DNA from: an uncultured Roseivirgaceae bacterium
GTDB lineage: Bacteria; Bacteroidota; Bacteroidia; Cytophagales; Cyclobacteriaceae
Reading direction: 5' to 3'
Length of the DNA: 22,277 bases
NCBI GenBank assembly: GCA_964504565.1
Contig: CAZDEY010000007.1
Span: 16,874 to 39,150, forward strand
Positions 2,749 through 19,574 of this stretch are shown piece by piece; the first letter of the stretch is position 1; each line of letters starts with the position of its first letter. The notes under the pieces were generated by a model that had not been told where the DNA came from, ran no database searches, and worked only from the letters and a program-made list of their open reading frames with translations. The translations under genes and the position numbers were made by a program.

Positions 2749-2759
2749 GAAATCTCTTG

Positions 2760-2830
2760 AACCCCTCCCATAACCGGAGGGGTTTTTTTATTTAACCTTT
2801 GTTCTGTTCAGTAGTTATTTTGCCAGATAT
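2760..2830 (+). repeat. Copy 2 of the ~72-bp direct repeat; it runs into the ATG (2829) of the downstream epimerase gene
   Basis: Aligns base-for-base with 1189..1261 apart from one indel in the T-run and one substitution. Confidence 0.9.
2762..2789 (+). terminator. Rho-independent terminator (second copy of the CCCCTCC/GGAGGGG hairpin, followed by T7)
   Basis: Same hairpin as 1192..1220, located immediately after the TGA of the metalloprotease gene. Confidence 0.75.
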
Positions 2831-4816: not shown

Positions 4817-4842
4817 GCAGTTAATTTTTTTATCGAATATTG

Positions 4843-4890
4843 AAAGCCCAAGGTTAAATCGCATAAATGAATTGACCTTGGGCTTTCTAT
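4843..4890 (+). terminator. Candidate terminator hairpin (12-bp stem AAAGCCCAAGGT / ACCTTGGGCTTT, large loop, then CTATTTT)
   Basis: Perfect 12-bp inverted repeat 27 bp after the LOG stop codon. The large 20-nt loop lowers confidence. Confidence 0.45.
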
Positions 4891-6332: not shown

Positions 6333-6523
6333 GAAAATAAAATTCTATTATTTTGAGCATATCTATTGACATGAGCAAAAACTTTTCCTATATTTATCTC
6401 AAGCTTTTAGCAAAAACAAATTTTAAGGCATGAAAGACAAAATTTGTTACAAAGCTATAAGTGAAAATAATGTAGAATCTCTTATTTTTAGCAAAGTATG
6501 AAAAATCTAAAACTTTTAACCAA
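6333..6523. promoter_or_regulatory. AT-rich divergent promoter region between the XRE regulator (minus strand) and the yjfI-like/pspA-like genes (plus strand)
   Basis: A 190-bp strongly AT-rich non-coding interval between divergently oriented genes; no individual promoter element is confidently assigned. Confidence 0.4.
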
Positions 6524-6919
6524 ATGAATTGCTATTTCGATACCGTACAGCATTTCTTATTGGAGCTTGGCTGTGAAATAAGATTGGCAAATGAAGCAGA
6601 TGGACTATTTGTAGTGGATAATGAGGAGCGGGGCTTGCGGAATTTAGTTATTGGCTGCGCCGATCCAATCTTAATACTGGAACAGTTCATCTTCGAAATA
6701 AGTGAAGACCGACCAGAGGTATATAAAAGCCTTCTGGTAAAGAACCGCGACATGATTGCGGGTGCCTTTGTACTGGACGATACCGGCTCGCGCGTGCTGT
6801 TCCGCAATACCCTTCAGCTAGAAAACCTCGACCTGAACGAAATAGAAGGAACCTTTAACGCCCTTAGCCTAATGCTTAGCGAATACAGCGACGAGCTAAT
6901 CCGCTTCGCTAAAATGTAA
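6524..6919 (+). CDS. YjfI-like / DUF2170 (YbjN-fold) small protein, PspA-associated
   Basis: Acidic 131-aa protein immediately upstream of a 232-aa PspA-family gene. Size and position mirror the E. coli yjfI-yjfJ pair. The family assignment is from memory of that arrangement and was not computed. Confidence 0.5.
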   Translation: MNCYFDTVQHFLLELGCEIRLANEADGLFVVDNEERGLRNLVIGCADPILILEQFIFEISEDRPEVYKSLLVKNRDMIAGAFVLDDTGSRVLFRNTLQLENLDLNEIEGTFNALSLMLSEYSDELIRFAKM

Positions 6920-6930
6920 ATTTTAAGAAC

Positions 6931-6997
6931 CAAGAGTCAGGAATCAAGAATCAAGATTTTAAGCTTGATCTCAAGACTAGAGACTCAAGACTCAAGA
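6931..6997 (+). repeat. Array of five direct TCAAGA(C/A)T repeats plus one inverted copy, ending 9 bp before the pspA-like start codon
   Basis: TCAAGA occurs at 6944, 6951, 6971, 6985 and 6992. CTTGAT (the inverted form) is at 6964. Confidence 0.8.
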
Positions 6998-7005
6998 CTA
7001 AAACC

Positions 7006-7704
7006 ATGAACATTTTCTCAAGATTATTCAAGATTGGTCAGGCCGAGGCTCATTCCGGAGTAGATAAACTGGAAGACCCGATTAAAATGACCGAACAAGG
7101 CATCCGCGATATGAAGGAAGACCTTGACAAAAGCTTACACGCCCTGGCGGAAGTAAAAGCTATGGCCATCCGTGCCAGAAACGAAGCGGAACGCCACGGC
7201 GAAGCGGCTAAAGATTATGAACATAAGGCCATACAGCTACTAAAGAAAGCACAGGGCGGCGAAATGGATTCAGCCGAAGCCGACCGTTTAGCCGGCGAAG
7301 CTTTAGCTCGTAAAGAGCAAAACCAGAAGCTGGTAAGCAACAGTAAGCAGGAGGTAGAACGCTACGAAAAAAGCGTGGCTCAGTTAGAAGCGAACGTTCG
7401 CACCATAAAGAGCAATATTGGCAAGTGGGAGAACGAGCTTAAAACCCTTAAAGCCCGCGTAAAAGTAAGCGATGCTACCAAAAACCTGAACAAGCAACTG
7501 GCGCAGATCGACAGCAGCAGTACCGTAAGTATGCTGGAGCGTATGCGCGATAAGGTTGCCCAAGAAGAAGCCTTGGCCGAAAGCTACGGTGAAATTGCCA
7601 ACGAAAGCCGCAGTGTCGACGACGAAATTGACCGCGCCTTAGAAGACAACACCACCAAAGCCAACGAAGACCTGGCCGAACTAAAGAAGAAACTTGGGAT
7701 GTAG
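7006..7704 (+). CDS. PspA/IM30 (Vipp1/ESCRT-III-like) family protein, YjfJ-like (232 aa)
   Basis: N-terminus MNIFSRLFKIGQAEAHSGVDKLEDPIKMTEQGIRDMKEDLDK follows the PspA/YjfJ pattern. The protein is entirely alpha-helical, charged and coiled-coil, and has the same length as E. coli YjfJ. Confidence 0.85.
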   Translation: MNIFSRLFKIGQAEAHSGVDKLEDPIKMTEQGIRDMKEDLDKSLHALAEVKAMAIRARNEAERHGEAAKDYEHKAIQLLKKAQGGEMDSAEADRLAGEALARKEQNQKLVSNSKQEVERYEKSVAQLEANVRTIKSNIGKWENELKTLKARVKVSDATKNLNKQLAQIDSSSTVSMLERMRDKVAQEEALAESYGEIANESRSVDDEIDRALEDNTTKANEDLAELKKKLGM

Positions 7705-7707
7705 GAC

Positions 7708-7790
7708 GGCACGAAGTGCCAACCTAATTAGAAATTAGAAATTTAAAATTAGAAATGAAGGCCTAACTGAGTCTAAGTAATTTCTAATTC
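7708..7790 (+). repeat. Post-pspA structured region: GGCAC-gaa-GTGCC hairpin, three direct AATTAGAAAT repeats and an inverted copy (TAATTTCTAATT)
   Basis: Read directly from the sequence. It may act as a terminator or attenuator, but there is no classical GC stem plus U-run. Confidence 0.5.
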
Positions 7791-7868
7791 ATAAACGGTC
7801 CGCCGTTGCGGTCATAATTTTTAATTTTTTAACCAGGCACAAGCCACCAGCCACTAAGCACCAATACT

Positions 7869-8540
7869 ATGAAAGCCCTATTTGAATTTGCCATTGCCGG
7901 CGCCAACGTAATACCCACCCTGTTGCTAATATTCATCGTGATGTATTGGCTAACAGTATTGGTTGGCGCTATCGACATGGATGCCTTCGATATTGACTTG
8001 GATGTAGATGCGGATGTGGATGCGGATGCCGGTCCGGCCGATATTGATCTGGATTTGGGTGATGGGCACTCGGAAGGTGGGTTAGAGTGGCTGAATAGCC
8101 TGCTGAGGTTTTTCAATTTGGGAAGAATACCCCTGATGATATTTTTAACCTTCTTGATACTGCCGCTTTGGTTGTTCTGTATTATAGTCAATGATTTCTT
8201 CGGTTTTCATAGCCTGTTGCCCGGCTTGTTAACACTTATTGTAGGCTTTGTGGCGTGCATGTTTGTAGCCAAAGTGCTTACCATGCCTTTTGTAAAGCTT
8301 TTCGATAAGCTGGACGAAGACAAAAACTATAGTGCTATTGGTAAAATATGTGTGTTGAGAAGCTCAATAGCTGCCGGAAGGCTAGGGCAAGCCGAAGTAA
8401 TACGGAACGGTGGAGGCGCGCCAATTATCCTGACCGTTTGTGCACCCACCGGAGTTGACATCAGCCGCGGCGAAAAGGCCTTGGTGCTAGAACACCAACC
8501 CGAGCGTAGCTGCTACCTGATAGAACCGTTCAGTTTGTAA
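7869..8540 (+). CDS. NfeD-like / YqiJ-like (DUF1449-type) inner-membrane protein with an acidic DxD repeat segment and a C-terminal OB-fold
   Basis: N-terminal TM helix, acidic repeat DIDLDVDADVDADAGPADIDLDLGDG, additional TM helices, and a C-terminal beta-rich segment (GKICVLRSSIAAGRLGQAEVIRNGGGAPIILTVCAPTGVDISRGEKALVLE) typical of NfeD OB-folds. It precedes a flotillin gene, as in yqiJK. Confidence 0.7.
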   Translation: MKALFEFAIAGANVIPTLLLIFIVMYWLTVLVGAIDMDAFDIDLDVDADVDADAGPADIDLDLGDGHSEGGLEWLNSLLRFFNLGRIPLMIFLTFLILPLWLFCIIVNDFFGFHSLLPGLLTLIVGFVACMFVAKVLTMPFVKLFDKLDEDKNYSAIGKICVLRSSIAAGRLGQAEVIRNGGGAPIILTVCAPTGVDISRGEKALVLEHQPERSCYLIEPFSL

Positions 8541-8569
8541 TAACTGTCGCTTATATCAGAACCTGACCA

Positions 8570-8745
8570 ACACACCGCGCGGCGGCCGACCCTACCCCTC
8601 TCAAGAGGGGACAGAACTGAACCTGCAATATTTAAGTCGTAAACCTATGACCTAATTATAAAATACGGAAGGCTAAGCTTTGCTAATGGTTTATTGGTGA
8701 GCTTTCCCCTCTTGAGAGGGGTCGGCGTAGCCGGGGGTGTGTGGC
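8570..8745. repeat. GC-rich REP/MITE-like element, copy 1. It is an inverted pair: ACACACCGCGCGGCGGCCGACCCTACCCCTCTCAAGAGGGG ... CCCCTCTTGAGAGGGGTCGGCGTAGCCGGGGGTGTGTGG
   Basis: The two arms are reverse complements of each other (shared cacacac / gccgaccc / cccctctcaagagggg blocks). Each arm ends in the self-complementary hairpin CCCCTCT-ca-AGAGGGG. A second copy of the family lies at 12053..12168. Confidence 0.8.
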
Positions 8746-8929
8746 CCGTTAGCCAAATTGAACAGTCAGTAATAATATAAATAATAAATAAAAATCGAAC
8801 CAAACTCTGTTCCCTCTCCTCCGAGGAGAGGGCTAGGGTGAGGTAGAACCCTTTCTTCGCCCTTAACCAACAGCCTTTAGGCTGTGCGCAGGAAAGGAAA
8901 AATGTATCACCTTAAATCATTTATCTATT

Positions 8930-11077
8930 ATGGAAAGTATAGCAGGAAATAGCTTATTGGTAGGAGGATTAATCCTCCTGGTAGTGGCTTTTGCCTTCCT
9001 GATTTTCTTGGCTAAGCTATATAGAAAATCAGAGCAGGGCCAGGCACTGGTAGTTACCGGTGTAGGCGGACCCAAAGTATCGTTTAGCGGCACCACCGTA
9101 ATTCCGGTCTTTCAACGATTGGAGATTATGGACATCACGGTTAAAACCATCATGATTAACCGGATGGGCAAAGAAGGCCTTATTTGCCGCGATAATATGC
9201 GGGCCGACATTAAAGTAACCTTCTTCGTTAGGGTAAACCAAACCAAGGAAGATGTAATGAATGTAGCCCAAAGCATTGGTTGCGATCGCGCTTCCGATCC
9301 GGCTCAGTTAGAACTTCTTTTTGATGCCAAATTCTCCGAAGCCCTAAAAACCGTAGGTAAGCGCTTCGACTTTGTAGACCTCTACACCAACCGCGTGGAG
9401 TTTAAAGACGAAATTTTGCAAATAATCGGTACCGACCTGAACGGTTATATACTGGATGACTGCGCTATTGACTATCTGGAGCAAACCCCGCTGGAGTTCC
9501 TGAATGAAAGTAATATTCTTGACTCAGAAGGTATCAAGAAGATTATTGACCTGACCGCTAAGCAGAAAATGGAGGCCAACTTCATTGAACGCGAAAAGGA
9601 AAAAACGCTGAAGAAGCAGGATGTTGAAGCGAGAGAAACAGTATTGCAGTTAGAGCGTCAGCAGATTGAAAGCGAAGAAAAGCAGCGCCGCGAAGTGGCC
9701 AGCGTACGAGCCCGCGAACGAGCCGAAGCTGAAAAGATTGAGGCTGAGGAGCGTTTGAAATCGGAGAATGCCCGTATAGCTACCGATGAGCAATTGCAAA
9801 TAGCTGAGCAGAATAAAGAGCGTCAGGTGTTGGTTGCCCAGCGCAATAAAGAGAAAACCGACGCGGTAGAAATGGAGCGCGTAACCCAGGCTCGCGACCT
9901 TGAGGCTAATGAGCGGGAGCGCATAGTTTCGCTGGCGCAGATTGAAAAAGAGAAAGCCCTGGAGGTTGAGCGTCGAAATATTCAGGAGGTGATTCGTGAG
10001 CGGGTAATGGTAGAAAAAGATACCGTTGCCGAGGAGGAGCGCATTAAAGATACCCGCGCCCATGCCGAGGCAGAACGGTTGAAGAAAGTTGCCTTAATAA
10101 ACGCGGAGAAAGAAGCGCAGGAGTCGTTAGTGAAGGAAATTAAAGCGGCCGAAGCTGCCCGCGAAGCGGCCGAATTCCGGGCTCGTCAGGCGATGATTGA
10201 TGCCGAAGCTGAGCGCAAAACCGCTGATATGAAAGCCGAAAGCATTAAGATTATGGCCGATGCTGAAGCGAAGAAGGCCGCCGCTTTAGGTTTAAGCGAA
10301 GCTCAGGTAATGGAAGCGAAAGCTGCCGCCCTAAGCAAACAAGGTGAAGCCGAAGCTAATGTAATTGAGGAGCGGGCTGATGCCGATGCTAAAGCTATCC
10401 GCATGAAGGGCGTGGCCCAGGCTGAGGCCAATACTAAACTTGGTCAGGCTGATGCCGAAATTATTCGAGCCAAAGCCGAGGCTAAGGAAATTGAAGGCCA
10501 GATGGAAGCCCGTATTATGGAGCAGAAGTTTGCCGCCGAAGCCAAAGGTATAGAAGAAAAAGCCAAAGCCATGAGTGCGCTGGATGGCCCAGGTAAGGAA
10601 CACGAAGAGTTTAAGCTACGTCTGGAGAAAGACAAAGCCGTAGAACTAGCCTCACTGGATATGCAACAGAGATTGGCTGAAGCCCAAGCGACCGTACTAG
10701 CCGAAGCCCTGAAAAACGCCGATATCGACATTATTGGCGGAGAAAGCATGTTCTTTCAGAACATTATGGGAGCCATGGCCAAAGGCAAAGCTATTGATGG
10801 CCTATTCAACCAGAGCGGTGCCCTGCAAGATGTAAAGAACACCTTCTTTGCACCTAATGCTAACGGCAATACCAACTTCAAAGAGCAAATGCGCCAGTTC
10901 CTCGATAAGTTCGGCTTGCAAAGCGAAGATGTACGCAACCTGAGCATTTCGGCCCTACTGCTTCGCATGATGCAAAGTGCCGAAACCGATCAGCAAAAAA
11001 CTGCCTTGCAAGAGCTTAACAAGCTGGCCGGCAGCATTGGCCTCGGCGACAAGCAGGTTAGTATGCTGAATTTGTAA
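8930..11077 (+). CDS. Flotillin-family SPFH/band-7 protein (YqiK/FloT-like, 715 aa) with a long E/A/K/R-rich coiled-coil flotillin domain
   Basis: N-terminal TM helix followed by an SPFH core (QALVVTGVGGPKVSFSGTTVIPVFQRLEIMDITVKTI...), then ~350 aa of EA-repeat coiled coil (AEAERLKK, AEAAREAAEFRARQAMIDAEAERK). Confidence 0.85.
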   Translation: MESIAGNSLLVGGLILLVVAFAFLIFLAKLYRKSEQGQALVVTGVGGPKVSFSGTTVIPVFQRLEIMDITVKTIMINRMGKEGLICRDNMRADIKVTFFVRVNQTKEDVMNVAQSIGCDRASDPAQLELLFDAKFSEALKTVGKRFDFVDLYTNRVEFKDEILQIIGTDLNGYILDDCAIDYLEQTPLEFLNESNILDSEGIKKIIDLTAKQKMEANFIEREKEKTLKKQDVEARETVLQLERQQIESEEKQRREVASVRARERAEAEKIEAEERLKSENARIATDEQLQIAEQNKERQVLVAQRNKEKTDAVEMERVTQARDLEANERERIVSLAQIEKEKALEVERRNIQEVIRERVMVEKDTVAEEERIKDTRAHAEAERLKKVALINAEKEAQESLVKEIKAAEAAREAAEFRARQAMIDAEAERKTADMKAESIKIMADAEAKKAAALGLSEAQVMEAKAAALSKQGEAEANVIEERADADAKAIRMKGVAQAEANTKLGQADAEIIRAKAEAKEIEGQMEARIMEQKFAAEAKGIEEKAKAMSALDGPGKEHEEFKLRLEKDKAVELASLDMQQRLAEAQATVLAEALKNADIDIIGGESMFFQNIMGAMAKGKAIDGLFNQSGALQDVKNTFFAPNANGNTNFKEQMRQFLDKFGLQSEDVRNLSISALLLRMMQSAETDQQKTALQELNKLAGSIGLGDKQVSMLNL

Positions 11078-11093
11078 AATTACCCCCGCCAGC

Positions 11094-11121
11094 TTAGCTA
11101 CGGGTTTAAACCCGTAGCTAA
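11094..11121. other. Perfect 14/14-bp palindrome TTAGCTACGGGTTT|AAACCCGTAGCTAA, located 17 bp after the flotillin stop codon
   Basis: Read from the sequence. There is no following U-run, so it could be a terminator variant or an operator. Confidence 0.6.
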
Positions 11122-11147
11122 CCAGTTGAGGCTAAACCCTTAGAAAG

Positions 11148-11651
11148 ATGAAAACTACTTACACCGAAAGCAGCCGCATAAAAGCTAAACCCGCTTACTG
11201 GATAGTTGGAATTGCCTTAGTCTTAGGTTTAGGCTTGCCGTTGGTAACCTCAGGTAGTGAGTGGAATGAGAAAGAAATAACGGGTTTAGCTATTTGCGCT
11301 GCGGTGATAGTTCCTATTTGTCTCTGGATTATGTACTGTCGTCTGGTAGTAAAATTGAGCCAGGCTGGTATACACTATCAGTTCAAGGGTATGCAATTGA
11401 AACCGCGATTTGTTCGCTGGCAGCAATTAGAATGCTGGAAAATAAGACCGGTAAGTGCCTTCGGTGAATTTGGCGGTTGGGGCTTGCGAACCAATTTCCA
11501 TAGTTGGGGCTACATGACCGGTACTCCTTATGCCTTAGAGCTAAATTACAAAGATGGGAAGGTAAGGGTTATCAGTATTAAACATCCTGCCAAGGTAAGG
11601 CAATGGCTTGAAACCAACAACCTAAGCCCCATGAATGCAGCCGAAAGCTAA
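11148..11651 (+). CDS. Membrane protein (2 TM helices plus a C-terminal ~90-aa beta-rich cytoplasmic domain, possibly a bacterial PH-like domain)
   Basis: Two hydrophobic helices (IVGIALVLGLGLPLV, LAICAAVIVPICLWIMY) are followed by a W/G-rich soluble domain. The PH-like assignment is a guess from the architecture. Confidence 0.5.
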   Translation: MKTTYTESSRIKAKPAYWIVGIALVLGLGLPLVTSGSEWNEKEITGLAICAAVIVPICLWIMYCRLVVKLSQAGIHYQFKGMQLKPRFVRWQQLECWKIRPVSAFGEFGGWGLRTNFHSWGYMTGTPYALELNYKDGKVRVISIKHPAKVRQWLETNNLSPMNAAES

Positions 11652-11681
11652 ATAAAAGAACCTCTAAATTTTTTAACCAAT

Positions 11682-11999
11682 ATGACACTTTTAATGACCA
11701 TACTTTTGCTGGCCTCCGCCGGGTTAACCGGCTGGGTAGGCTGGCAGCTTAGAGCTAATAATCGCCTGGAGTGGTTACTGGGCTATAGCCCAACCGCCGT
11801 TCGCGATAGAAGCGGACTGGCTCGCTGGGCCGGGGGCGTACTATTTGTACTAGCTTTAGTTGAAATTGCCAGCGCCGCCGGTTTATGGGTATGGCCCGTA
11901 ACTTTGGCCGGACTAATCTGCGCCGCTCTACACTGTCTAGGTATTATCATCCTGGCCTTAGGCTCTACACAATACTCAAAAACGGAGGAAACCTTTTGA
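11682..11999 (+). CDS. Small membrane protein (105 aa, 3 predicted TM helices; DUF3784-like, family assignment tentative)
   Basis: Three hydrophobic segments separated by short loops. The start codon is 30 bp after the preceding gene. Confidence 0.45.
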   Translation: MTLLMTILLLASAGLTGWVGWQLRANNRLEWLLGYSPTAVRDRSGLARWAGGVLFVLALVEIASAAGLWVWPVTLAGLICAALHCLGIIILALGSTQYSKTEETF

Positions 12000-12052
12000 T
12001 GGAGAGAATGGAGTTGAAGATGGAAAGGCTATGCAAAATAGGAAACGGGCCT

Positions 12053-12168
12053 ACACACCGCGCGACGGTCGCCCCAGCATCGCTACGCTCGCTACCCCTC
12101 TCAAGAGGGGAATTTCTGCCACTGTCCCTTTTGAGGGGGGCAACTAACGAAGTGAGCGGGGTGTGTCA
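12053..12168. repeat. GC-rich REP/MITE-like element, copy 2. Arms: ACACACCGCGCGACGGTCGCCCC...CTACCCCTCTCAAGAGGGG and, inverted, CCCTTTTGAGGGGGG...GCGGGGTGTGTCAG
   Basis: Shares the ACACACCGCGCG head and the CCCCTCTCAAGAGGGG hairpin with 8570..8745. It is more degenerate and has a shorter inter-arm spacer. Confidence 0.7.
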
Positions 12169-12254
12169 GAAGCCCTACAAGTAACCACGAATTCCAATTT
12201 GATGTAACGATTCTTCCCTCCTTTAGGAGGGACCGAGGGAGGTGAAAAATAAAA

Positions 12255-15200
12255 ATGAGCAAAAATACTATACCTACACCCGAACAACCGCAGGATAATA
12301 ATCAGCTGGAAGGAGCATCGTACCAGATTCTGCAGAAGCGTTTGCTGGATGCTGCTGGTAGTTTGCGCGAGAAGCTGGCCGGGCTCAATGGTAGCCGTAA
12401 AGATATTTTCGGGGCGATAGAAACCAAATTGCTGGCCACCGAGCGCGTAAGTACTGAACACAACTGTGTAGCTCAGGATATGAGTCCGGTGGGCAAGAGG
12501 CCCGTGGGCGAAAGCTTTATCTTCGGCTACAACGTACAGATGGGCCTAAAGCAGGAAATGGATCTGGCCGATGTGTTTAGTATTTACCGCTACGAGGAAA
12601 AGAGCTTCCACCCGGAAACGCTGGATATACTAAAGCAGGGAAGTTTTGCCGAGGACTTCAAAAATCTGTATAAATACTATAAAGAAACCCGTTTTGTAAA
12701 GTTTGTCAAGCAAGGCGTTCACCTGCATATGGTGTTTCGCGTTGGCAAAAGCGAGGGCGATATAAAAACCTTTAAGTGGTTGCTGGAAGGCGATAGCCTA
12801 AAGTATATCGACAACCGGAGTGAACACGAAATTAAAACCCCGGCCCAACAAGAATTTCGCTGGAAAAAAACGACCCGCGATCAGCAGCGCGCCGGCCGCT
12901 TCCCGCACATCAGTATTGAAGATCGGGTGTTTGTGGAAACCCTGGGCGGCGACCTTACCATTAAAGTAGAAGACAATACCGAAAAAGGGCAGGGAATATA
13001 TACCGAACCGGTTGAGTTTCCAGACCAGACGCTGGATGATGCCGAGGTGTTCTACGCCTTACTGGATAACCTCACGGTACTTAAAGTAAGGCCGTATAAC
13101 GAGAAGGAGTGGCGCTATTTTGTCTATAATGCCAAGCTTCAGCAGGTAAAACGTATCGATAGCCTTGGCCAAGCAGCACTCTTATTGCCCGACGATCAGG
13201 GCTTGCTATTCCCGGATGGCTACTATCTGCAAACCGGTGAGTATAAGCGCTTCGATATGCCGGAAGGGAAAGCCATGCGCTTCGAAAAGCGAATTATCAG
13301 CCCCAATGGCGAAGACGTGCTGTTTGTATTCTTTAATGCAGCCGAAGGCTTGTATTTACTTCTGCCCTATAACCTGATTGAGCAGGAAATCGATACGCCA
13401 ATTTATTGCCACGGCTACTCTATTTTCGAGAACGGCGAAATGCTCTTCTTCCGCGGCGATGATGAGCCCACCCGCCACCATACCATCCAGATTTGGCAGA
13501 CTCCCTACGTTGGGCCAAACTACCAGATGGGGCAGGCTAACGACAGTTACTTATTCAAAATTGGTAATAAAGAAGTGGTGCGCGCTATGGCCGAGGCTAA
13601 TCAGCTTATTGGCCTGCTGGAAAAAGAAGATAATTATGCCGGCCTGTACCACGACCTGATAAAATCAGCCACCGCCCTATTAGACCACTACCACTGGCTA
13701 GGCCATGCCGAAGCTTATGAGCTGGAAACTCCGCTAAGGTTGGTTAGGCAAACGGCCAATTCGGCGCTGGATGAATTTGAAAAAGTACGCAGCATAAAGA
13801 AAAGCACCGAGGAGCAAACGGGCAAAACCTTAAGCGAGGCCGACGGACTATTGCGCAACATTAAGCGCGAACGACCGCGCCACATCCTGGATTTTGTAGC
13901 CCAGCTTAACGCGTTGCGTAGGCTTAGAGGTGAAGTTATATCGCTGAAAGACTTGCGCTACGTACAGCTTGCGCCGGTAGAAGGTGCCGAGCAGTTGCTA
14001 AAAGATGCTGCCGATAGCGTAGCCCGGGCCTGCGTACGTTTTCTACTTCAGGATGATGCCCTGCAGCCCTACCAACAAAAACTAGATGAACTTGGACAGC
14101 AGGTAGAAAAGGCACCAAAAGTAGCCGAACTAAATGCCTTGCTGGAAGAGGCCGATACCCTGGCCGGCGAACTGGAAATGCTGTTGGAGGTAGTGGGTAA
14201 TCTAAAAATTGAAGATGCTACCCAGACCACGCAGATAATTGATAACGTTTCGGCTTTGTACGCCGGACTGAACGCCACGCGTACCCGCCTGCGCAACCGC
14301 AAAAAAGAACTGCAGCGCGCGGAAGGGGCCGCTGAATTCTCGGCGCAGCTAAAATTGGTTGACCAGAGCGTAATAAACTACCTGGATGTGTGCGATACGC
14401 CGGCCAAGGTAGAAGAATACCTGACCCGCGTAATGGTGCAGCTGGAAGAGTTAGAAGGTAAGTTTTCGGAGTTTGATGAGTTTCTGGATAAGCTGGCAAC
14501 CAAGCGCGAGGAGGTATATGCTGCTTTCGAGAACAAAAAGGTTGCCCTGACCGAAGCCCGAAACAAACGTGCGGTAACGCTGCATGGCGCCGGTGAGCGT
14601 ATTATTAGCGCAGTAAAAAGCCGTTTAGGTAGGTTTAAAGAGGTTAACGAAATTAATGGCTACCTAGCGGGTGACCTGATGGTGGAAAAGCTGCGTGGCA
14701 TTATTGCCGATCTGCAGGAGTTAGGCGATACCGTAAAATCCGACGACCTAAAGAGCCAGTTACAGGCTCTGCGCGATGAGAGCTTGCGCCAGCTTAAGGA
14801 TAGAAAGGAACTTTATGCCGATGGCGAAAACACTATTAAGTTCGGAAAGTGGATATTTAGTGTAAATAAGCAGCCACTGGAGCTGACCACACTTCTGCGC
14901 CCTGATGGTTGGTACTACCACCTGACCGGTACGGCCTATTTTGAAAAGATAAAAGCCGATAGCCTGAAGGGTACCGAAGCTGTGTGGCAGCAAAATCTGG
15001 TATCGGAAAACGAGCAGGTATACCGGGCGGAATACTTAGCGTATCAATTCCTGAAATCGGTGCGGGAAGGTAAGCTGGAAACCAGCCTGACCGAATTGCA
15101 GCAATTTACTATCGATGAACTGTTAACTGCTGTGCAAAAGTTCTCGGCCGGCCGCTTCGATGAGGGTTACGTAAAGGGCGTGCACGATAAAGATGCCGCG

Positions 15201-17207
15201 CGTTTGCTTACCCACTTACTGACAATGGAAAGTACCGTGGGCTTGCTTAAATACGCCCCACCAACCCGTACGCTGGCGCATATTGGCTGGCTGGTGTTTA
15301 TGCCGAAATCTACGCGCGAAGCGCTGGAAGGGCAACTGACCGGTGCCGGTGAAATCTTGAAGGTATTCCCATCGGCAAACGGCTTTGCGTCGGTGCGCAA
15401 TCAGTTAGAAAAGCACTTGGTACAGTTTGCCGAGGAAACCGAACTGTTCTTAGCTGAAGAAGCCTTTGAGGCCGCCCAGTACTTATTTGAAGCCCTAAGT
15501 GGAGCCGGATTTGTAGTAGATAACTTTGCTATGCAGCTAAAAGAACAGTTTTTAGCTGACTTGAAGAAGAACGGTGGCCTAAACGCTTTCGAAAGCAGTA
15601 TTAAAAAGCTGCAGGACCAGCCCGCCGCAGCCTATAGCTTGCTAAGGCAATGGGCCGGGGCCTGGCTAGAGAGCGCAGAGGCAGAGAATTTCTGGCTCGA
15701 TGAACTGGCCAGTTTGCTATGGCCGGAACTTCGCGATACGCTACAGAATGCGGTAAATGTCAACTTGAGCGATACCATTCAGGAAATGGCCGGTGAGCAC
15801 GCGCTTATTCGGGAGCAACAATATAAGCTGGGCTATCACCAATTCTGGCACAAGCTACAGCAACACGAAAGTACGACGGTGCCACTGTATCGTCAGCTAA
15901 CCCAGGCTAAAAAGCTACTGATAAAAGAAGGGGCAGAAAACCTTCGTCTGGAAGAATTTAAGCCGCGCGTAATGAGTTCTTTCGTACGGAATAAGCTGAT
16001 AGATGAGGTTTACCTGCCACTAATCGGCGCTAACCTGGCCAAGCAAATAGGTACCGCCGGCGATACCAGCCGCGTTGACCGCCAGGGTATGCTTTTGCTG
16101 ATTTCGCCTCCGGGTTACGGTAAAACCACTTTAATGGAATACCTGGCTGATCGCCTGGGGCTTATCTTCATGAAGATTAACGGCCCGGCCATTGGCCACG
16201 ATATTACCTCTATTGACCCGAGCGAAGCTAAAAATGCCGGTGCGCGTCAAGAGTTAGAAAAGCTTAACCTAAGCTTTGAAATGGGCGACAACGTGATGAT
16301 TTATCTGGATGATATTCAGCACTGTAATCCGGAGTTTCTGCAGAAGTTTATCAGCTTGTGCGATGGGCAGCGAAAAATAGAAGGTATCTGGAAGGGTAGA
16401 AGCAAGACTTATGACTTCAGAGGTCGCCGCGTGGCGGTAGTAATGGCGGGTAACCCCTATACCGAAAGCGGCGAAAAATTCCGTATACCGGATATGCTGG
16501 CCAACCGAGCCGACATTTACAACCTAGGCGACATTCTGGGCGATAGCGATACCGCCTTCAAACTTAGTTATTTGGAAAACAGCTTTACGGCTAACCCGGC
16601 TGTGGCGCGCATTGCCACTAAAAGCCATAAAGATGCCGTAGCCATAATCAAAATGGCAATGCACGGCGAAAACCAGGCCGAAACTCCGCAGTGGGAAGCC
16701 AATCACGACCCTAGCGAAATTAGCGAGGCCGTTAGCGTACTAAAGAAGTTGCTGAAAATTCGCGATGTGGTGCTGCGCGTGAACGAGGAATATATTCATT
16801 CGGCCGGCCAGGCCGATGAATACCGTACCGAACCCGCCTTTAAGCTGCAGGGTAGCTACCGAAATATGAATAAGTTGGGTGAAAAAGTAGCCCCGGTTAT
16901 GAATGAGCAGGAACTTGATACCTTAATTCTAAGCCACTACGAAAGCGAGGCGCAGACCTTAACCACCGGTGCTGAAGCCAACTTGCTCAAGTTTAAAGAC
17001 ATGATGAACTGGCTGAGCCAGGAGGAAAAGGAACGTTGGGCCGATATAAAAGCCATTTTTAAGAAGCAGCAGCAACTAAAAGGCCTGGGCGGCAACCATA
17101 TGGCACAGCTTATGGCGCAGGTAGAAAATGTAAGCCACGCGCTGTACGGCATAAGAGCCGCACTGGCAGCGGGTTCCAAGTTGAACGGCGTGGAGAAGGA
17201 AAAATAG
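12255..17207 (+). CDS. Giant (1650 aa) protein with a C-terminal MoxR/AAA_5-class AAA+ ATPase core and a ~1250-aa beta-rich plus coiled-coil N-terminal region; function unknown
   Basis: Walker A LLISPPGYGKTTLMEYLA is at nt ~16113. The Walker-B/AAA_5 box VMIYLDDIQHCNPEFLQKFISLCDG is at nt ~16293. The sensor-1 element VAVVMAGNPY is present, as is the Arg-finger-like DMLANRADIYNLGD; these are the conserved signatures of MoxR/McrB/dynein-type AAA_5 modules. N-terminal residues ~130-560 show repeated beta-strand blocks (VLKVRPYNEKEWRYFVYN, VLFVFFNAAEGLYLLLPYNL, YSIFENGEMLFFRGDDE) that suggest a propeller-like domain. Residues ~780-1000 are coiled-coil. The ORF is uninterrupted. Confidence 0.7.
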   Translation: MSKNTIPTPEQPQDNNQLEGASYQILQKRLLDAAGSLREKLAGLNGSRKDIFGAIETKLLATERVSTEHNCVAQDMSPVGKRPVGESFIFGYNVQMGLKQEMDLADVFSIYRYEEKSFHPETLDILKQGSFAEDFKNLYKYYKETRFVKFVKQGVHLHMVFRVGKSEGDIKTFKWLLEGDSLKYIDNRSEHEIKTPAQQEFRWKKTTRDQQRAGRFPHISIEDRVFVETLGGDLTIKVEDNTEKGQGIYTEPVEFPDQTLDDAEVFYALLDNLTVLKVRPYNEKEWRYFVYNAKLQQVKRIDSLGQAALLLPDDQGLLFPDGYYLQTGEYKRFDMPEGKAMRFEKRIISPNGEDVLFVFFNAAEGLYLLLPYNLIEQEIDTPIYCHGYSIFENGEMLFFRGDDEPTRHHTIQIWQTPYVGPNYQMGQANDSYLFKIGNKEVVRAMAEANQLIGLLEKEDNYAGLYHDLIKSATALLDHYHWLGHAEAYELETPLRLVRQTANSALDEFEKVRSIKKSTEEQTGKTLSEADGLLRNIKRERPRHILDFVAQLNALRRLRGEVISLKDLRYVQLAPVEGAEQLLKDAADSVARACVRFLLQDDALQPYQQKLDELGQQVEKAPKVAELNALLEEADTLAGELEMLLEVVGNLKIEDATQTTQIIDNVSALYAGLNATRTRLRNRKKELQRAEGAAEFSAQLKLVDQSVINYLDVCDTPAKVEEYLTRVMVQLEELEGKFSEFDEFLDKLATKREEVYAAFENKKVALTEARNKRAVTLHGAGERIISAVKSRLGRFKEVNEINGYLAGDLMVEKLRGIIADLQELGDTVKSDDLKSQLQALRDESLRQLKDRKELYADGENTIKFGKWIFSVNKQPLELTTLLRPDGWYYHLTGTAYFEKIKADSLKGTEAVWQQNLVSENEQVYRAEYLAYQFLKSVREGKLETSLTELQQFTIDELLTAVQKFSAGRFDEGYVKGVHDKDAARLLTHLLTMESTVGLLKYAPPTRTLAHIGWLVFMPKSTREALEGQLTGAGEILKVFPSANGFASVRNQLEKHLVQFAEETELFLAEEAFEAAQYLFEALSGAGFVVDNFAMQLKEQFLADLKKNGGLNAFESSIKKLQDQPAAAYSLLRQWAGAWLESAEAENFWLDELASLLWPELRDTLQNAVNVNLSDTIQEMAGEHALIREQQYKLGYHQFWHKLQQHESTTVPLYRQLTQAKKLLIKEGAENLRLEEFKPRVMSSFVRNKLIDEVYLPLIGANLAKQIGTAGDTSRVDRQGMLLLISPPGYGKTTLMEYLADRLGLIFMKINGPAIGHDITSIDPSEAKNAGARQELEKLNLSFEMGDNVMIYLDDIQHCNPEFLQKFISLCDGQRKIEGIWKGRSKTYDFRGRRVAVVMAGNPYTESGEKFRIPDMLANRADIYNLGDILGDSDTAFKLSYLENSFTANPAVARIATKSHKDAVAIIKMAMHGENQAETPQWEANHDPSEISEAVSVLKKLLKIRDVVLRVNEEYIHSAGQADEYRTEPAFKLQGSYRNMNKLGEKVAPVMNEQELDTLILSHYESEAQTLTTGAEANLLKFKDMMNWLSQEEKERWADIKAIFKKQQQLKGLGGNHMAQLMAQVENVSHALYGIRAALAAGSKLNGVEKEK

Positions 17208-17214
17208 TAACTAG

Positions 17215-17694
17215 ATGAAACATTTGATTGAGTTTGACGCTGGGAAGCTTCTCCCGTTTCATTTTATTTTGGCGGGTACAATCCTCCTATTCTTTGGTGT
17301 AGTTGCCTTACTATATAGCCCCTTTGCCGGAATATTGTTTGGCTTATTAGGCTTACTTATACTTACCGCAAAAAGGGGGGTAGATATTGATTTTGCGAAA
17401 AAGATTTATCGGGAATATCACTCTTTTTATTGGATTAAAACTGGCAAGTGGTCGCCTTTTAATTCAGTGGTTAAGCTGTACATAAACCCGGTTAAGATGA
17501 GTCAGCGAATGAGCAATTTGGCTTCAAGTAGCACTATTCATAGTAATGAGTACAAGGCTTACTTGAAATTCAATAATGAAGACAAAGTATATTTGTTGTC
17601 AGGTAAAAAAATAAAAGTTTTAGAGGAAAAATTAACTCCCCTGGCAGCTAGCTTGGGTTTGAGCATAACTGATAATTCTAAGCTGTTTAGTTAA
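17215..17694 (+). CDS. Small membrane protein (2 N-terminal TM helices plus a ~105-aa cytoplasmic domain), translationally coupled to the giant ATPase gene
   Basis: The ATG lies 7 bp after the giant-gene stop. TM segments are LPFHFILAGTILLFFGVVALLY and FAGILFGLLGLLILTA. The gene is AT-rich. Confidence 0.55.
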   Translation: MKHLIEFDAGKLLPFHFILAGTILLFFGVVALLYSPFAGILFGLLGLLILTAKRGVDIDFAKKIYREYHSFYWIKTGKWSPFNSVVKLYINPVKMSQRMSNLASSSTIHSNEYKAYLKFNNEDKVYLLSGKKIKVLEEKLTPLAASLGLSITDNSKLFS

Positions 17695-17705
17695 ATTAAA
17701 TATGT

Positions 17706-18266
17706 ATGAACAAACTCTTAACCAAATTAAAATTAGTTGACTACCATGAGTTTACTCTGCCGGTAGACAAAAATCATTTGGTAAACAAACTAAAAGCTAA
17801 TGTAGACCGAGGTAGTACTTCTAATTTTCTATCAGGGCTTGAAATGTTTTCATCCAGTAAGAACGAGTATAAAGGTGAAGTGCTGGCTGATTCATTTCAT
17901 TTAAGGAAGCGACCTAAAATGTTCGATATGAACAGTATGACATCGGCTAAAGCTAAAGGTATACTAAACGAGGTTGCCAATGGAACTCAGGTAAATTTAG
18001 AAATTAATGGCTTTACTGGGCAGTTCAAGCCATTTTTGATCCTTGTGCCTATAATTTATATAATTTTCATAATAGCCTTTTTGAGTTCGGATACTTTTCC
18101 AGCATTTGGGTTAGTGTTTATACTGGTGCATGGAGTATTTATGTTAGGAATGCCCTATATGTTCATGCGAAGAAGCATTAGCCGCCTGAAGTATGATATA
18201 GAAAGAGATATGTACTATATGGTAAGAAATGATTTATCAACTTCAACCAATAAAATTCAAGCATAA
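17706..18266 (+). CDS. Membrane protein (~108-aa N-terminal soluble domain plus 2 C-terminal TM helices)
   Basis: The start is 11 bp after the previous stop. TM segments are FKPFLILVPIIYIIFIIAFLS and FPAFGLVFILVHGVFMLGMPYMF. No recognisable motif. Confidence 0.5.
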   Translation: MNKLLTKLKLVDYHEFTLPVDKNHLVNKLKANVDRGSTSNFLSGLEMFSSSKNEYKGEVLADSFHLRKRPKMFDMNSMTSAKAKGILNEVANGTQVNLEINGFTGQFKPFLILVPIIYIIFIIAFLSSDTFPAFGLVFILVHGVFMLGMPYMFMRRSISRLKYDIERDMYYMVRNDLSTSTNKIQA

Positions 18267-18270
18267 TTTT

Positions 18271-18648
18271 ATGAATGATAAAGAGAAACTATACGAAACA
18301 ATGGGCGAATTGATATTCGCGGTGGCCAAAGCCGATGGCGTAATTCATGATTCGGAAATGACCGCTTTGCAGGAAATTCTGGACAATCACCATTGGGCTA
18401 AAAATATCAGTTGGTCGTTCAACTACGAGCGCGATAAGAATACCGACCCTAACGCAGCCTACAAAAAAGTAGTGAGCTTCTGCCACAGCTATGGCCCTAC
18501 TGCCGAATACGCTGAGTTTATTGATGTAATGCAAAAGATAGCCGAAGCCAGCGGAACCGTAGAACCGGAACAGGCCAACATCATAAACTCCTTTAGCCAC
18601 GACCTAACCGAACGCTTCCGTAAGGATGTAGAAAGTAAGTTGAATTAG
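18271..18648 (+). CDS. TerB-domain (tellurite-resistance TerB / DjlA-N-like) protein, ~125 aa
   Basis: LYETMGELIFAVAKADGVIHDSEMTALQEIL matches the TerB signature (hydrophobic-AKADG-hydrophobic...E...L). The ATG at 18271 is 4 bp after the upstream stop. The ORF-track start at 18229 overlaps the upstream gene and is rejected. Confidence 0.65.
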   Translation: MNDKEKLYETMGELIFAVAKADGVIHDSEMTALQEILDNHHWAKNISWSFNYERDKNTDPNAAYKKVVSFCHSYGPTAEYAEFIDVMQKIAEASGTVEPEQANIINSFSHDLTERFRKDVESKLN

Positions 18649-18674
18649 TAGGATGACTTTTGTATCAGCCAATC

Positions 18675-19394
18675 AGTAACTAGGTTACTCAAAGTAACCT
18701 AGTTACTTGCTCTATAACCTTACTCAAAGGTATTGGTGTTTTCCCCAATTTCGTATTCCTCATGAAATTTGATGAATTCCTCTCTTCCTCCAAACCAATC
18801 TAAAACCTTTCCTCTCTCAAGCTTAGTTGACCCATTACTGATAATGCTTCGGTAAGATGAATGTTTATAGGTTTTGAAATCTTTGCCAACTTTGTGCTTA
18901 TCAGGGTTTTTATGAATGTAGGCAATAAGTGCAGAGAGATAAGAATTATCCTTAACTTCTATTCTCTTAAACGGGGTTTCAAATAAGGCTCCGGTACGTT
19001 GGTATCGTTTATTAATGGCTCGGGTATAAGCTTGAAATAGGCTGGCAAAGCCATTGCTGACGTGCCAACCTGGTTCTCTGCCAGAAGAAGGTTTGATTTC
19101 TCTAAACTTGTCTTCATCTCGTACCCTAATTAAAATATGGAAGTGATTTTGCAACAGGCAGTAAGCGTAGGTTTCTACTAGAGTGGAAAGGTATTTTTCA
19201 TAGAGTTGGAGAAAGTATTTATAGTTCTCTTCTTCAAAAAATACCGCCTGTCCATTTATCTCTCTATTGTAAATATGATAATAGCGTTCTGGCAACAAGG
19301 GTATTTTACGTATGTTCAAGCTAGGTACGTTCATAGTTTAAGTGTAACAACTGAGGGGATTAGTAACTAGGTTACTTCAAGTAACCTAATTACT
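18675..19394. mobile_element. IS200-like / REP-associated tyrosine transposase (RAYT) unit (~720 bp): one HUH-Y1 transposase gene bounded by two near-identical 33-bp palindromes (AGTAACTAGGTTACT-nnn-AGTAACCTAGTTACT)
   Basis: The left palindrome at 18675..18707 has a perfect 15-bp stem. The right palindrome at 19362..19394 has one mismatch. They sit 13 bp beyond the stop codon and 28 bp beyond the start codon of the enclosed gene, respectively. The unit is AT-rich relative to its surroundings. Confidence 0.7.
18720..19334 (-). CDS. IS200/IS605-family-like Y1 HUH transposase / REP-associated tyrosine transposase (RAYT), 204 aa
   Basis: HUH motif in LQNHFHILIRV (H-F-H followed by hydrophobics) and a catalytic-Tyr motif in SALIAYIHKNPDKHKV (Y-I-H-x-N-P), with the spacing expected for Y1 transposases. 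The flanking palindromes are as described for the mobile element. Confidence 0.7.
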   Translation of the reverse strand: MNVPSLNIRKIPLLPERYYHIYNREINGQAVFFEEENYKYFLQLYEKYLSTLVETYAYCLLQNHFHILIRVRDEDKFREIKPSSGREPGWHVSNGFASLFQAYTRAINKRYQRTGALFETPFKRIEVKDNSYLSALIAYIHKNPDKHKVGKDFKTYKHSSYRSIISNGSTKLERGKVLDWFGGREEFIKFHEEYEIGENTNTFE

Positions 19395-19574
19395 GATTAC
19401 CCGCCGAAACGAGTTACCCTGGTACCGTATTTTAACCGTTAAAATATCAGTTCAAAATTATGGAATTGGTATATATGAAAAATTTAATTTAATCTGTCTT
19501 CGAATAAACATAGCGTCAGATACACAGTTAGTTAAGTATTGAAGTTAATTTTTTTAACCTAAATTTTTATAACT

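Follow-up and report, generated by a model that had tools for sequence, protein, structure and literature searches.

A putative membrane-associated gene unit encoding an NfeD-like protein, a long flotillin and a giant AAA+ ATPase, with a PspA module attached in Bacteroidota

Gene content of the locus

The window, a stretch of 22,277 nucleotides from an uncultured Roseivirgaceae bacterium, carries ten plus-strand genes across 6524–18648, a layout on which the ORF listing, Pfam and JGI's gene calls for the source contig concurred (Table 1). This bore out the initial annotation, which had described a 12-kb co-directional block with a divergent XRE/S24-like regulator at its 5′ end. Judged from the comparisons below, the block is one example of a widespread, membrane-associated gene unit, with a conserved core of a YqiJ/NfeD-like gene, a long YqiK-type flotillin gene and an AAA+ ATPase gene of about 1,650 codons in a fixed order.

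Table 1. Genes and sequence features of the block and its divergent upstream region
Feature	Position	Strand	Basis
XRE/S24-like regulator	5499–6332	−	HTH_3
Divergent intergenic region	6333–6523		repeats, sigma-70-like match
YjfI-like protein (CesT_Tir_1/YbjN)	6524–6919	+	Pfam
PspA_IM30 protein	7006–7704	+	Pfam
YqiJ/NfeD-like membrane protein	7869–8540	+	hhalign, YqiJ_N in orthologs
REP-like palindromic element, first copy	8559–8725		repeat families
Long flotillin, 715 aa	8930–11077	+	hhalign to E. coli YqiK
Small membrane protein, 167 aa	11148–11651	+	2 hydrophobic segments
Small membrane protein, 105 aa	11682–11999	+	~3 hydrophobic segments
REP-like element, second copy	12042–12112		repeat families
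Giant AAA+ ATPase, 1650 aa	12255–17207	+	DUF3686, DUF7902, one AAA module
Membrane protein, 159 aa	17215–17694	+	hydrophobic segments
Membrane protein, 186 aa	17706–18266	+	hydrophobic segments
TerB-domain gene	18229/18271–18648	+	Pfam TerB

A regulator, a YjfI-like protein and PspA lie upstream

The divergent regulator has an HTH_3 domain (E = 2.7e-11). An S24-like domain went undetected in the window's protein itself; Peptidase_S24 was matched by 14 of 18 orthologs (best E = 5e-10), and the ortholog profile gave weak matches to the LexA C-terminus (E = 0.012). In an alignment made by eye, GTEM stands where LexA has GMSM, and Glu and Arg occupy the positions of LexA Ser119 and Lys156; on this visual judgement the protein probably lacks the catalytic Ser/Lys pair. 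In 18 of 33 Bacteroidota loci, as well as in loci L086 and L089, the regulator gene is found again at the same place and with the same orientation. Within the divergent region, three 19-nt direct repeats (family D11, at 6396, 6477 and 6505) are candidate operator sites, and a sigma-70-like match lies at 6366–6394; a 9-mer survey of the orthologous divergent regions revealed no clear shared motif.

The YjfI-like protein matched CesT_Tir_1 (E = 6.3e-55) and YbjN (E = 2.5e-9), corresponding to a CesT/Tir-type chaperone fold, and its gene is paired with a PspA gene in 17 loci among the best 80 of more than 582 matches. The next protein aligned with PspA_IM30 over residues 2–229 (E = 1.1e-43, 149.9 bits versus a cut-off of 33.9) and is accordingly classed, by sequence, as a full-length member of PspA/IM30, which belongs to the bacterial ESCRT-III superfamily.

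The YqiJ/NfeD-like protein and a long YqiK-type flotillin

The YqiJ/NfeD-like protein of the window matched Pfam YqiJ_N under the cut-off (E = 0.003); 22 of 30 orthologs matched YqiJ_N, three of 30 matched the NfeD model, and the ortholog profile aligned over the full length with E. coli YqiJ (hhalign, P 97%, E = 9.5e-11). With three hydrophobic segments followed by a soluble C-terminal domain, and with its gene directly 5′ of an SPFH gene, the protein is predicted to belong to the NfeD/YqiJ class, whose features are a multi-pass N-terminus, a soluble C-terminus and this gene position.

The flotillin gave no Pfam Band_7 match even at E ≤ 1 and no match in a PDB sequence search, and just one of 29 orthologs matched the Band_7 model. 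Profile–profile alignment nevertheless points to a YqiK-type SPFH member: the ortholog profile aligned with E. coli YqiK by hhalign (P 100%, E = 2e-40, 31% identity, 393 columns) across anchor, SPFH domain and coiled coil. One hydrophobic segment at residues 1–34 forms the N-terminal membrane anchor, the coiled coil is long and Glu/Ala-rich, and a low-confidence AF2 model (pLDDT 56) drew a near-continuous helix over residues 199–596. The C-terminal ~180 aa are conserved within the subfamily and resembled neither the YqiK C-terminus (P 0.6%) nor any PDB sequence.

The giant ATPase carries a single MoxR/dynein-clade AAA+ module

In the giant protein, an N-terminal DUF3686 domain (Pfam, residues 37–480, E = 8e-185) is followed by DUF7902 with a coiled coil at about 600–900, a helical middle region, a single AAA+ module at about 1270–1430 and a helical C-terminus. 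The module clears the Pfam AAA_5 threshold, has its closest structures in MoxR-type NorQ and CbbQ and then in midasin and dynein, and possesses the pre-sensor-1 β-hairpin; it belongs to the MoxR/dynein clade, being of AAA_5 type with a MoxR-like fold. Walker A (with K1290), the sensor-1 Asn and one conserved Arg are invariant among orthologs, as is a Walker B Asp-Asp in place of Asp-Glu, which could imply a slow or regulatory turnover of ATP rather than a motor. Conservation across phyla amounts to ~50% identity over 1,650 aa. A search for hydrophobic or membrane segments found none, and the protein is predicted to be soluble; the Pfam scan likewise detected neither a protease domain nor any other effector domain that could be recognised, and no DNA-binding or nuclease domain. 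No gene for a VWA-domain partner was found near the ATPase gene among the conserved ORF clusters or the annotated loci.

Two better-known ATPase types were considered and rejected for this protein. A Vps4-type, classical-clade AAA was set aside on account of the pre-sensor-1 hairpin and the absence of an MIT domain, and with the NorQ/CbbQ likeness these features tell against the Vps4 comparison of the initial annotation wherever it is read as ancestry. A membrane-anchored AAA+ protease of the HflK/C–FtsH type was set aside since the ATPase has neither a hydrophobic segment nor a peptidase domain.

The flotillin–ATPase linkage spans at least six phyla

Linkage was examined in 80 loci, the best species matches of more than 582, an uneven sampling, and was counted for loci with at least 2.3 kb of upstream sequence. 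Among these best matches, 60 of 65 loci had a flotillin gene directly upstream of the ATPase gene and co-oriented with it; the tally by phylum was 22/22 in Planctomycetota, 32/36 in Bacteroidota and 5/5 in other phyla. The adjacency was also seen in all seven distant relatives (27–34% identity), among them one actinomycete and one genome of the Lachnospiraceae; all seven were sampled around a single distant representative. Combined, a long YqiK-type flotillin gene precedes the DUF3686-AAA+ gene in 67 of 72 loci outside the window's genome. The linked loci span at least six phyla and occur in Bacteroidota, Planctomycetota, Desulfobacterota, Verrucomicrobiota, Kiritimatiellota, Calditrichia, Actinomycetota and Firmicutes. 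Taken by itself, co-orientation says little, but an arrangement conserved at this frequency goes beyond chance. Five loci (L019, L060, L061, L066 and L020) have no adjacent flotillin gene despite ample upstream sequence, and so the adjacency is not obligatory.

In 60 of the 80 best-match loci, the flotillin gene had a YqiJ/NfeD-like gene just 5′ of it. The intergenic gap between these two genes is typically −8 to +10 nt, and that between the flotillin and ATPase genes has a median of ~150 nt and is shorter than 300 nt in most genomes. When all neighbouring ORFs were clustered de novo, no further neighbour proved to be widely conserved. Over 63 loci, the matrices of pairwise identity for flotillin and for ATPase correlated (Pearson 0.87), which speaks for co-inheritance; mean pairwise identities were 57% and 54%, respectively, indicating slow and similar evolutionary rates.

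Whether the ATPase gene stays linked to those for PspA and flotillin had been named by the initial annotation as the relevant test of a functional partnership. For flotillin/NfeD the outcome was positive; for PspA it was limited to Bacteroidota, where 19 of 33 loci have PspA 5′ of NfeD-flotillin, against none of 27 loci in other phyla. The XRE/YjfI/PspA module is a second unit, attached upstream of the core in Bacteroidota only and in many genomes there.

Local insertions and a low-GC tail surround the core

The first REP-like element is built from CTACCCCTCTCAAGAGGGGA, present in two inverted copies, together with a flank of 34 nt (repeat families D7, D15, I4 and I7), and its second copy shares D7, D15 and I7. 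The 167-aa and 105-aa small membrane proteins had homologs only in L056, a Cesiribacter locus, among the best 80 of more than 582 matches, and their genes (11148–11999) are an insertion specific to this lineage, which parts the flotillin gene from the ATPase gene. As to gene calling, a JGI-called gene at 11885–12184 overlaps a REP-like element and has no homolog elsewhere, and the ORF at 11682–11999, uncalled by JGI, is conserved in L056.

Downstream of the ATPase gene, the GC content falls to 0.34–0.39 over 17215–18648, versus 0.46–0.52 in the core. The 159-aa and 186-aa proteins of this tail had no homologs in any other locus among the same best 80 matches. The TerB domain passed its Pfam cut-off (E = 6.5e-6, 26.9 bits versus 24.4), but TerB occurs near the giant gene in just three of 85 loci (the window, L041 and L086), and its supposed membership of the unit was not upheld. 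The two membrane-protein genes and TerB are a local addition outside the conserved unit. The earlier view, which held that no single ancestral operon underlies the block, has to be divided: it stands only for this tail, the REP-like elements and the two genes for small membrane proteins, and fails for the NfeD-flotillin-ATPase core, which is an old, tightly packed unit with short gaps.

A proposed partnership with the flotillin scaffold and its alternatives

We favour, with some confidence, a reading in which the giant ATPase works with the flotillin/NfeD scaffold as its dedicated partner, driven by ATP, and in which PspA is an addition specific to one lineage. The flotillin, anchored via the hydrophobic segment at its N-terminus and organised by the NfeD protein, would oligomerise into an SPFH-type scaffold on the cytoplasmic side of the inner membrane. 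The ATPase would dock onto this scaffold; the putative contact, a conjecture, would be between the subfamily-specific C-terminal region of the flotillin and the N-terminal DUF3686/coiled-coil part of the ATPase. ATP would be spent on assembling, disassembling or turning over the scaffold or the proteins held there. Where co-encoded, PspA may be recruited to the same membrane patches in envelope stress, much as PspA of Bacillus subtilis is recruited by the SPFH protein YdjI, YjfI would act as its chaperone, and the XRE/S24-like protein would control expression. Two precedents come from published text: Scholz et al. 2021, as cited in a passage of a 2025 review, describe an SPFH protein through which PspA is linked with the membrane, and the SPFH proteins HflK/C are described in a background text as associating with the AAA protease FtsH. 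A more specific version, which we put forward tentatively as the less probable one, is that the ATPase binds the subfamily-specific C-terminal region of the long flotillin and uses ATP to remodel both flotillin assemblies and, in Bacteroidota, PspA polymers, as a Vps4 analogue with a MoxR/dynein-type engine in place of a classical AAA module; it would then be the dedicated motor that bacterial membrane-scaffold systems have so far lacked.

Alternatively, the ATPase might act mainly on PspA polymers as a Vps4 counterpart, flotillin/NfeD being only a membrane platform. This would suit the attachment of PspA and YjfI in the 19 Bacteroidota loci and also in L086 and L089, and the PspA genes found on the downstream side in L083 (within 6 kb) and in L046 (at about 1 kb). 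The same Vps4 analogy was made by Ravi et al. 2024 (PMC11237479), and the 2025 review knows of no Vps4-like ATPase in bacteria. We regard PspA as an unlikely main substrate.

Control could also run in the reverse direction, as for HflK/C–FtsH, with flotillin/NfeD confining or regulating an ATPase whose substrates are other membrane or membrane-proximal proteins. Pairing of SPFH assemblies with AAA+ enzymes is established beyond HflK/C–FtsH, and a tight operon with co-inheritance would fit control in either direction. However, the ATPase, unlike FtsH, is devoid of a membrane segment and of a protease or recognisable effector domain, and the ORF clustering revealed no candidate substrate gene conserved nearby, so that we regard this arrangement, too, as improbable.

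That the locus is a conflict, anti-phage defence or stress island seems very unlikely. Its context gives some reason to consider it: TerB lies downstream in the three loci named above, a PLDc_2 (phospholipase D) gene adjoins the regulator in L086, and XRE-S24 regulators are common on mobile elements. PADLOC, however, returned no meaningful matches, TerB is rare, and the core keeps its ~50% identity across phyla and in varied chromosomal contexts, unlike fast-evolving defence genes. A DNA repair ATPase with an incidental flotillin neighbour has a negligible probability, as its sole support is the Pfam DUF3686 description and the NCBI product name, whereas no DNA-binding or nuclease domain and no conserved DNA-repair neighbour gene were found, a literature search met no mention of DUF3686 or PF12458, and the adjacency in 67 of 72 loci effectively refutes 'incidental'. 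As a label in databases, 'DNA repair ATPase' almost certainly misleads and should not spread further.

Bacterial flotillins and PspA/Vipp1 build large membrane assemblies. Bacteria appear, according to the 2025 review, to be without a Vps4-like ATPase. As a presumed partner of the flotillin/NfeD scaffold, encoded beside flotillin in at least six phyla, the giant ATPase would be the most obvious candidate for dismantling or recycling such assemblies, a role open to testing in the culturable Pontibacter, Hymenobacter, Rufibacter and Dokdonia.

Comparison with known systems

The AAA+ module is closest to those of the MoxR-type proteins NorQ, CbbQ and RavA and of midasin and dynein, with which it has the pre-sensor-1 β-hairpin in common. 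The giant ATPase differs from this group in the absence of a VWA partner gene nearby, in its Walker B Asp-Asp, in having one AAA module rather than six in one chain, and in its huge N-terminal DUF3686/coiled-coil region, to which nothing in these proteins corresponds. With Vps4/ESCRT-III of archaea and eukaryotes it shares, in Bacteroidota, an AAA+ gene beside the gene of an ESCRT-III-superfamily protein, PspA, and a similar working relationship is possible; Vps4, however, belongs to a different AAA+ clade, and the giant ATPase has no MIT domain, bears its one AAA module after a 1,200-aa N-terminal region and is linked to PspA in one phylum only.

In HflK/C–FtsH and in prohibitin with the m-AAA protease, an SPFH scaffold at a membrane is likewise coupled, genetically or physically, to an AAA+ ATPase. 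FtsH is membrane-anchored, of the classical AAA clade and equipped with a protease domain, whereas the giant ATPase, a predicted soluble protein of the MoxR/dynein clade, lacks such a domain. The two-gene NfeD-flotillin arrangement is the same as in YqiJ-YqiK of E. coli and YuaF-FloT of B. subtilis, and homology is detectable (tested for E. coli). In E. coli, yqiK is not followed by an ATPase gene, and the window's flotillin is ~160 aa longer than YqiK, with its own conserved C-terminal region, and escapes Pfam Band_7.

The nearest precedent is an operon class reported by Ravi et al. 2024 (mSystems 9:e00847-23, PMC11237479), with CesT/Tir-PspA, band-7/flotillin, YqiJ/YuaF and a 'novel AAA+ ATPase' given as β-propeller plus coiled coil (example around ANH61663.1, Dokdonia donghaensis); these authors also described shorter operons with only flotillin, YqiJ/YuaF and sometimes the ATPase, which match our three-gene core. 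The window carries the order regulator(−)/CesT-Tir/PspA/YqiJ-YuaF/band-7-flotillin/large AAA+ ATPase, and comparison with the Table S3 entry showed the same content and order, including the divergent cHTH+protease regulator. The Dokdonia ATPase is matched by its published description and gene position. There is no essential difference between the two loci; the window adds two genes for small membrane proteins, REP-like elements and a TerB tail. As the class had been published, the association found here is a rediscovery, and the functional inference for the ATPase is also already in that paper. Added to the published account are the frequency of the linkage and the MoxR/dynein-clade assignment; and, seen from the side of the ATPase, flotillin is nearly always present, where the published wording was 'in some cases'.

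Gene content of the block and identity of its products

The ORF listing, the Pfam and NCBIfam scans and the gene calls of the source metagenome contig gave a consistent gene map, with ten plus-strand genes within 6524-18648, bearing out the co-directional block described in the initial annotation. Hydrophobic segments were determined by a simple hydropathy scan, and none was found in the giant protein.

Features of the window, with the evidence for their assignment
Feature	Position	Strand	Remarks
~77-nt direct repeats	1185-1261; 2755-2830		85-96% identical; each bears a GC-rich hairpin and a T-run
Peptidase_M57 gene	1633-2748		bracketed by the ~77-nt repeats
Helix-turn-helix regulator gene	5499-6332	divergent	at the 5′ end of the block
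Three 19-nt direct repeats	6396-6523		ATCTCAAGCTTTTAGCAAA and variants; between the divergent regulator and YjfI genes
YjfI-like CesT_Tir_1 protein		+	E 6e-55
PspA	7006-7704	+	E 1e-43
NfeD/YqiJ-like protein	7869-8540	+	223 aa; three-pass membrane protein
REP-like element, two copies	8559-8725; 12042-12112		34-nt flank and palindrome CTACCCCTCTCAAGAGGGGA
Flotillin	8930-11077	+	715 aa; one N-terminal hydrophobic segment
Two small membrane proteins		+	167 aa and 105 aa
ORF not called by JGI	11682-11999		conserved in L056
JGI-called gene	11885-12184		probably spurious
Giant protein	12255-17207	+	1,650 aa; DUF3686 (E 8e-185), DUF7902 and one AAA module
Walker B	16305-16313		residues 1351-1353 of the giant protein
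Low-GC segment	17215-19500		GC 0.34-0.39, versus 0.46-0.52 in the operon core
Two small membrane proteins		+	159 aa and 186 aa
TerB-domain protein		+	26.9 bits versus a cut-off of 24.4
37-nt inverted repeats	18671-18707; 19362-19398		each palindromic; bracket the 204-aa gene
204-aa gene	18720-19334	-	weak IS200-like Y1 transposase match; HxH-type motif (HFHILI)

Direct Pfam, NCBIfam and PDB sequence searches with the 715-aa protein gave no SPFH match, with Pfam Band_7 unmatched even at E ≤ 1, and Band_7 was matched by one of its 29 orthologs. Its SPFH identity was settled by profile-profile comparison, in which the ortholog profile aligned with E. coli YqiK (hhalign probability 100%, E 2e-40, 31% identity, 393 columns) along the membrane anchor and SPFH domain and into the coiled coil, so that the flotillin label was upheld. 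An AF2 model of the flotillin (25 sequences) was unusable (pLDDT 56, below 50 in the SPFH region). The NfeD/YqiJ-like protein of the window alone fell below the Pfam threshold; YqiJ_N was matched by 22 of 30 orthologs, and the ortholog profile aligned over its full length with E. coli YqiJ (E 9.5e-11), in agreement with this label as well.

The giant ATPase is linked to flotillin and NfeD across phyla

The giant protein was aligned with 15 homologs and one genome per GTDB species was then scanned, by which more than 582 stretches encoding a relative were found; the best 80 (48-59% identity to the window protein) were fetched with 10-kb flanks. These 80 loci belong to Bacteroidota (42), Planctomycetota (30) and Desulfobacterota (3), with the rest from Kiritimatiellota, Verrucomicrobiota, Calditrichia and two unclassified bacteria. 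Their six-frame ORFs were then searched with each window protein. Upstream sequence reached 2.3 kb or more in 65 loci, and in 60 of these a flotillin was identified directly upstream on the same strand, i.e. in Planctomycetota 22/22, Bacteroidota 32/36, Desulfobacterota 1/2 and other phyla 5/5. The NfeD-like gene precedes the flotillin in 60 of the 80 loci, typically with a gap of -8 to +10 nt, and the gap between the flotillin and ATPase genes has a median of ~150 nt. In the five loci lacking an adjoining flotillin, unrelated TPR, AbiEii, 2OG oxygenase and 7TM-SpoIIE genes lie upstream.

The bias of this set to close relatives was countered by using the first 700 aa of the giant protein as query for 1.84 billion cluster representatives, which yielded 922 matches at E ≤ 1e-3; full-length members measured 1,600-1,930 aa, with identities as low as 27%. 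Among seven contigs carrying relatives of one 27%-identical representative, flotillin was directly upstream in all seven and a recognisable NfeD-like gene was present in six; this distant set includes a Lachnospiraceae genome and Natronoglycomyces albus (Actinomycetota), the flotillin of which does match Band_7. Pooling both sets, flotillin adjoins the ATPase gene in 67 of 72 loci, as the proposed linkage of the two had predicted. Furthermore, pairwise identities of flotillin and ATPase correlate (Pearson 0.87, 63 loci) and both proteins are slow-evolving, indicating a unit inherited together. The initial view that the block is not a single ancestral operon applies to the window, which is interrupted, but not to the three-gene core of NfeD/YqiJ-like, flotillin and ATPase genes.

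PspA is a Bacteroidota-specific addition

The regulator/YjfI/PspA module precedes the core in 19 of the 33 Bacteroidota loci that have at least 6.5 kb upstream and in 0 of 27 loci of other phyla. The older unit is thus the three-gene core, to which PspA was added in one lineage, and the suggested linkage of PspA to the giant ATPase is seen in part of the Bacteroidota loci and in none of the others. Two distant Bacteroidota loci, L086 and L089, carry the module too, and in L046 and L083 PspA lies shortly downstream. Thus, seen from the ATPase side, the near-constant partner is flotillin/NfeD. A less likely rival explanation is an ATPase acting chiefly on PspA.

The remaining small genes were rejected as conserved members. 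Homologs of the 167-aa and 105-aa proteins were found only in L056 (Cesiribacter), the one locus besides the window with these genes between flotillin and ATPase; the 159-aa and 186-aa proteins have no homologs outside the window; and an iterative HMM search of all ORFs for TerB returned two Marinilabiliales loci only, where it lies directly 3′ of the giant gene (L086, Carboxylicivirga, 14918-15331, +; L041, Saccharicrinis, 14904-15314, +). DUF4178, listed by Ravi et al. in another PspA-CesT/Tir operon class (PMC11237479), was observed in 3 of 26 scanned ORFs directly downstream of the giant gene (L002-L081 locus set, alignment A6).

An AAA module of the MoxR/dynein clade and its probable role

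When the entire giant protein was used for a PDB profile search, only the Walker A region matched, weakly, to p97/RuvB, so a structure model was needed for clade assignment. The model of residues 1215-1650 was usable (pLDDT 78, pTM 0.71); in it, a beta-hairpin separates the Walker B strand/helix from the sensor-1 strand, and on this modelled fold the ATPase is assigned to the MoxR/dynein clade. The alignment shows no variation in Walker A, the sensor-1 Asn or a conserved Arg, and Walker B is an invariant Asp-Asp instead of the usual Asp-Glu (16 and 53 homologs). The 'beta-propeller' description of the N-terminal DUF3686 domain comes from Ravi et al. (PMC11237479). Median giant ORF lengths are 1,648 aa in Bacteroidota, 1,797 aa in Planctomycetota and 1,870 aa in Desulfobacterota, the latter two (loci L026-L081) being ~150-220 aa longer. 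One homolog (P0403, 1,876 aa; L088 3188-8818) is fused to ankyrin repeats, and several genes near the distant homolog in L083 (1734-6978, 22532-23161) have faint or weak ankyrin-repeat matches.

With moderate confidence, we consider the giant ATPase most likely an ATP-driven partner of the flotillin/NfeD scaffold. The analysis shows which genes these are, the conserved order in which they lie and the clade of the ATPase; that the ATPase would touch this scaffold, act on it rather than the reverse, and use ATP to do so is what we infer. The C-terminal 180 aa of the flotillin, conserved among the ATPase-linked flotillins and without counterpart in E. coli YqiK or the PDB, is for this reason a candidate docking site, and E. 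coli YqiK, unlike the flotillins of this core, has no giant-type ATPase gene adjoining. Given the same adjacency, control could, less probably, be reversed, with flotillin/NfeD acting over the ATPase as in HflK/C and FtsH. The database label 'DNA repair' and a defence role have little or no support, since unbiased clustering of all neighbouring ORFs revealed no other widely conserved neighbour up- or downstream and PADLOC found no defence-system match.

Regulator, repeats and mobile elements

The regulator was initially annotated as a divergent XRE-S24 protein; its position was confirmed, while S24 was undetected in the window protein itself and found in 14 of 18 orthologs. Visual inspection points to substitution of both catalytic residues of LexA (Ser and Lys), suggesting that the S24 domain may not self-cleave. 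The 19-nt repeats are candidate operator sites; a 9-mer survey of the regulator-YjfI intergenic region in 19 loci gave no convincing shared operator motif, and a sigma-70 promoter and terminator scan, with a model ill-suited to Bacteroidota promoters, performed no better than on shuffled sequence. In L086, a phospholipase-D-family gene (4180-4860, -) adjoins the regulator gene, as Ravi et al. report for some Proteobacteria (PMC11237479).

REP-like palindromes occupy the NfeD-flotillin gap and the gap before the ATPase gene, where the JGI-called gene runs across the second copy and lacks homologs in other loci, hence its probable spuriousness. The low-GC segment spans two membrane-protein genes, TerB and the transposase-like 204-aa gene, a composition consistent with recent acquisition. 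Together with its bracketing repeats, the 204-aa gene (18671-19398) resembles a REP-associated tyrosine transposase accompanied by its REP sequences, and in L018 and L033 weak homologs of it lie close to the giant gene. The ~77-nt repeats suggest either a duplicated terminator/promoter segment or insertion of the Peptidase_M57 gene.

Comparison with published operons

Literature searches (DUF3686, PF12458, flotillin+MoxR) found the ATPase treated only by Ravi et al., with no mention of DUF3686 or PF12458 and no experimental study of the ATPase in the literature searched. Ravi et al. propose chaperone-like or ESCRT-like membrane remodelling and also note shorter operon versions without PspA (PMC11237479). 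As they published the gene arrangement, the present finding is a correct rediscovery, to which are added the linkage frequency, flotillin/NfeD as near-constant partner with PspA Bacteroidota-specific, the MoxR/dynein-clade assignment and the subfamily-specific flotillin C-terminus. The closest likeness is the Dokdonia donghaensis locus in their supplementary table (PMC11237479), which has the same gene order as the window, including the divergent cHTH+protease regulator gene.
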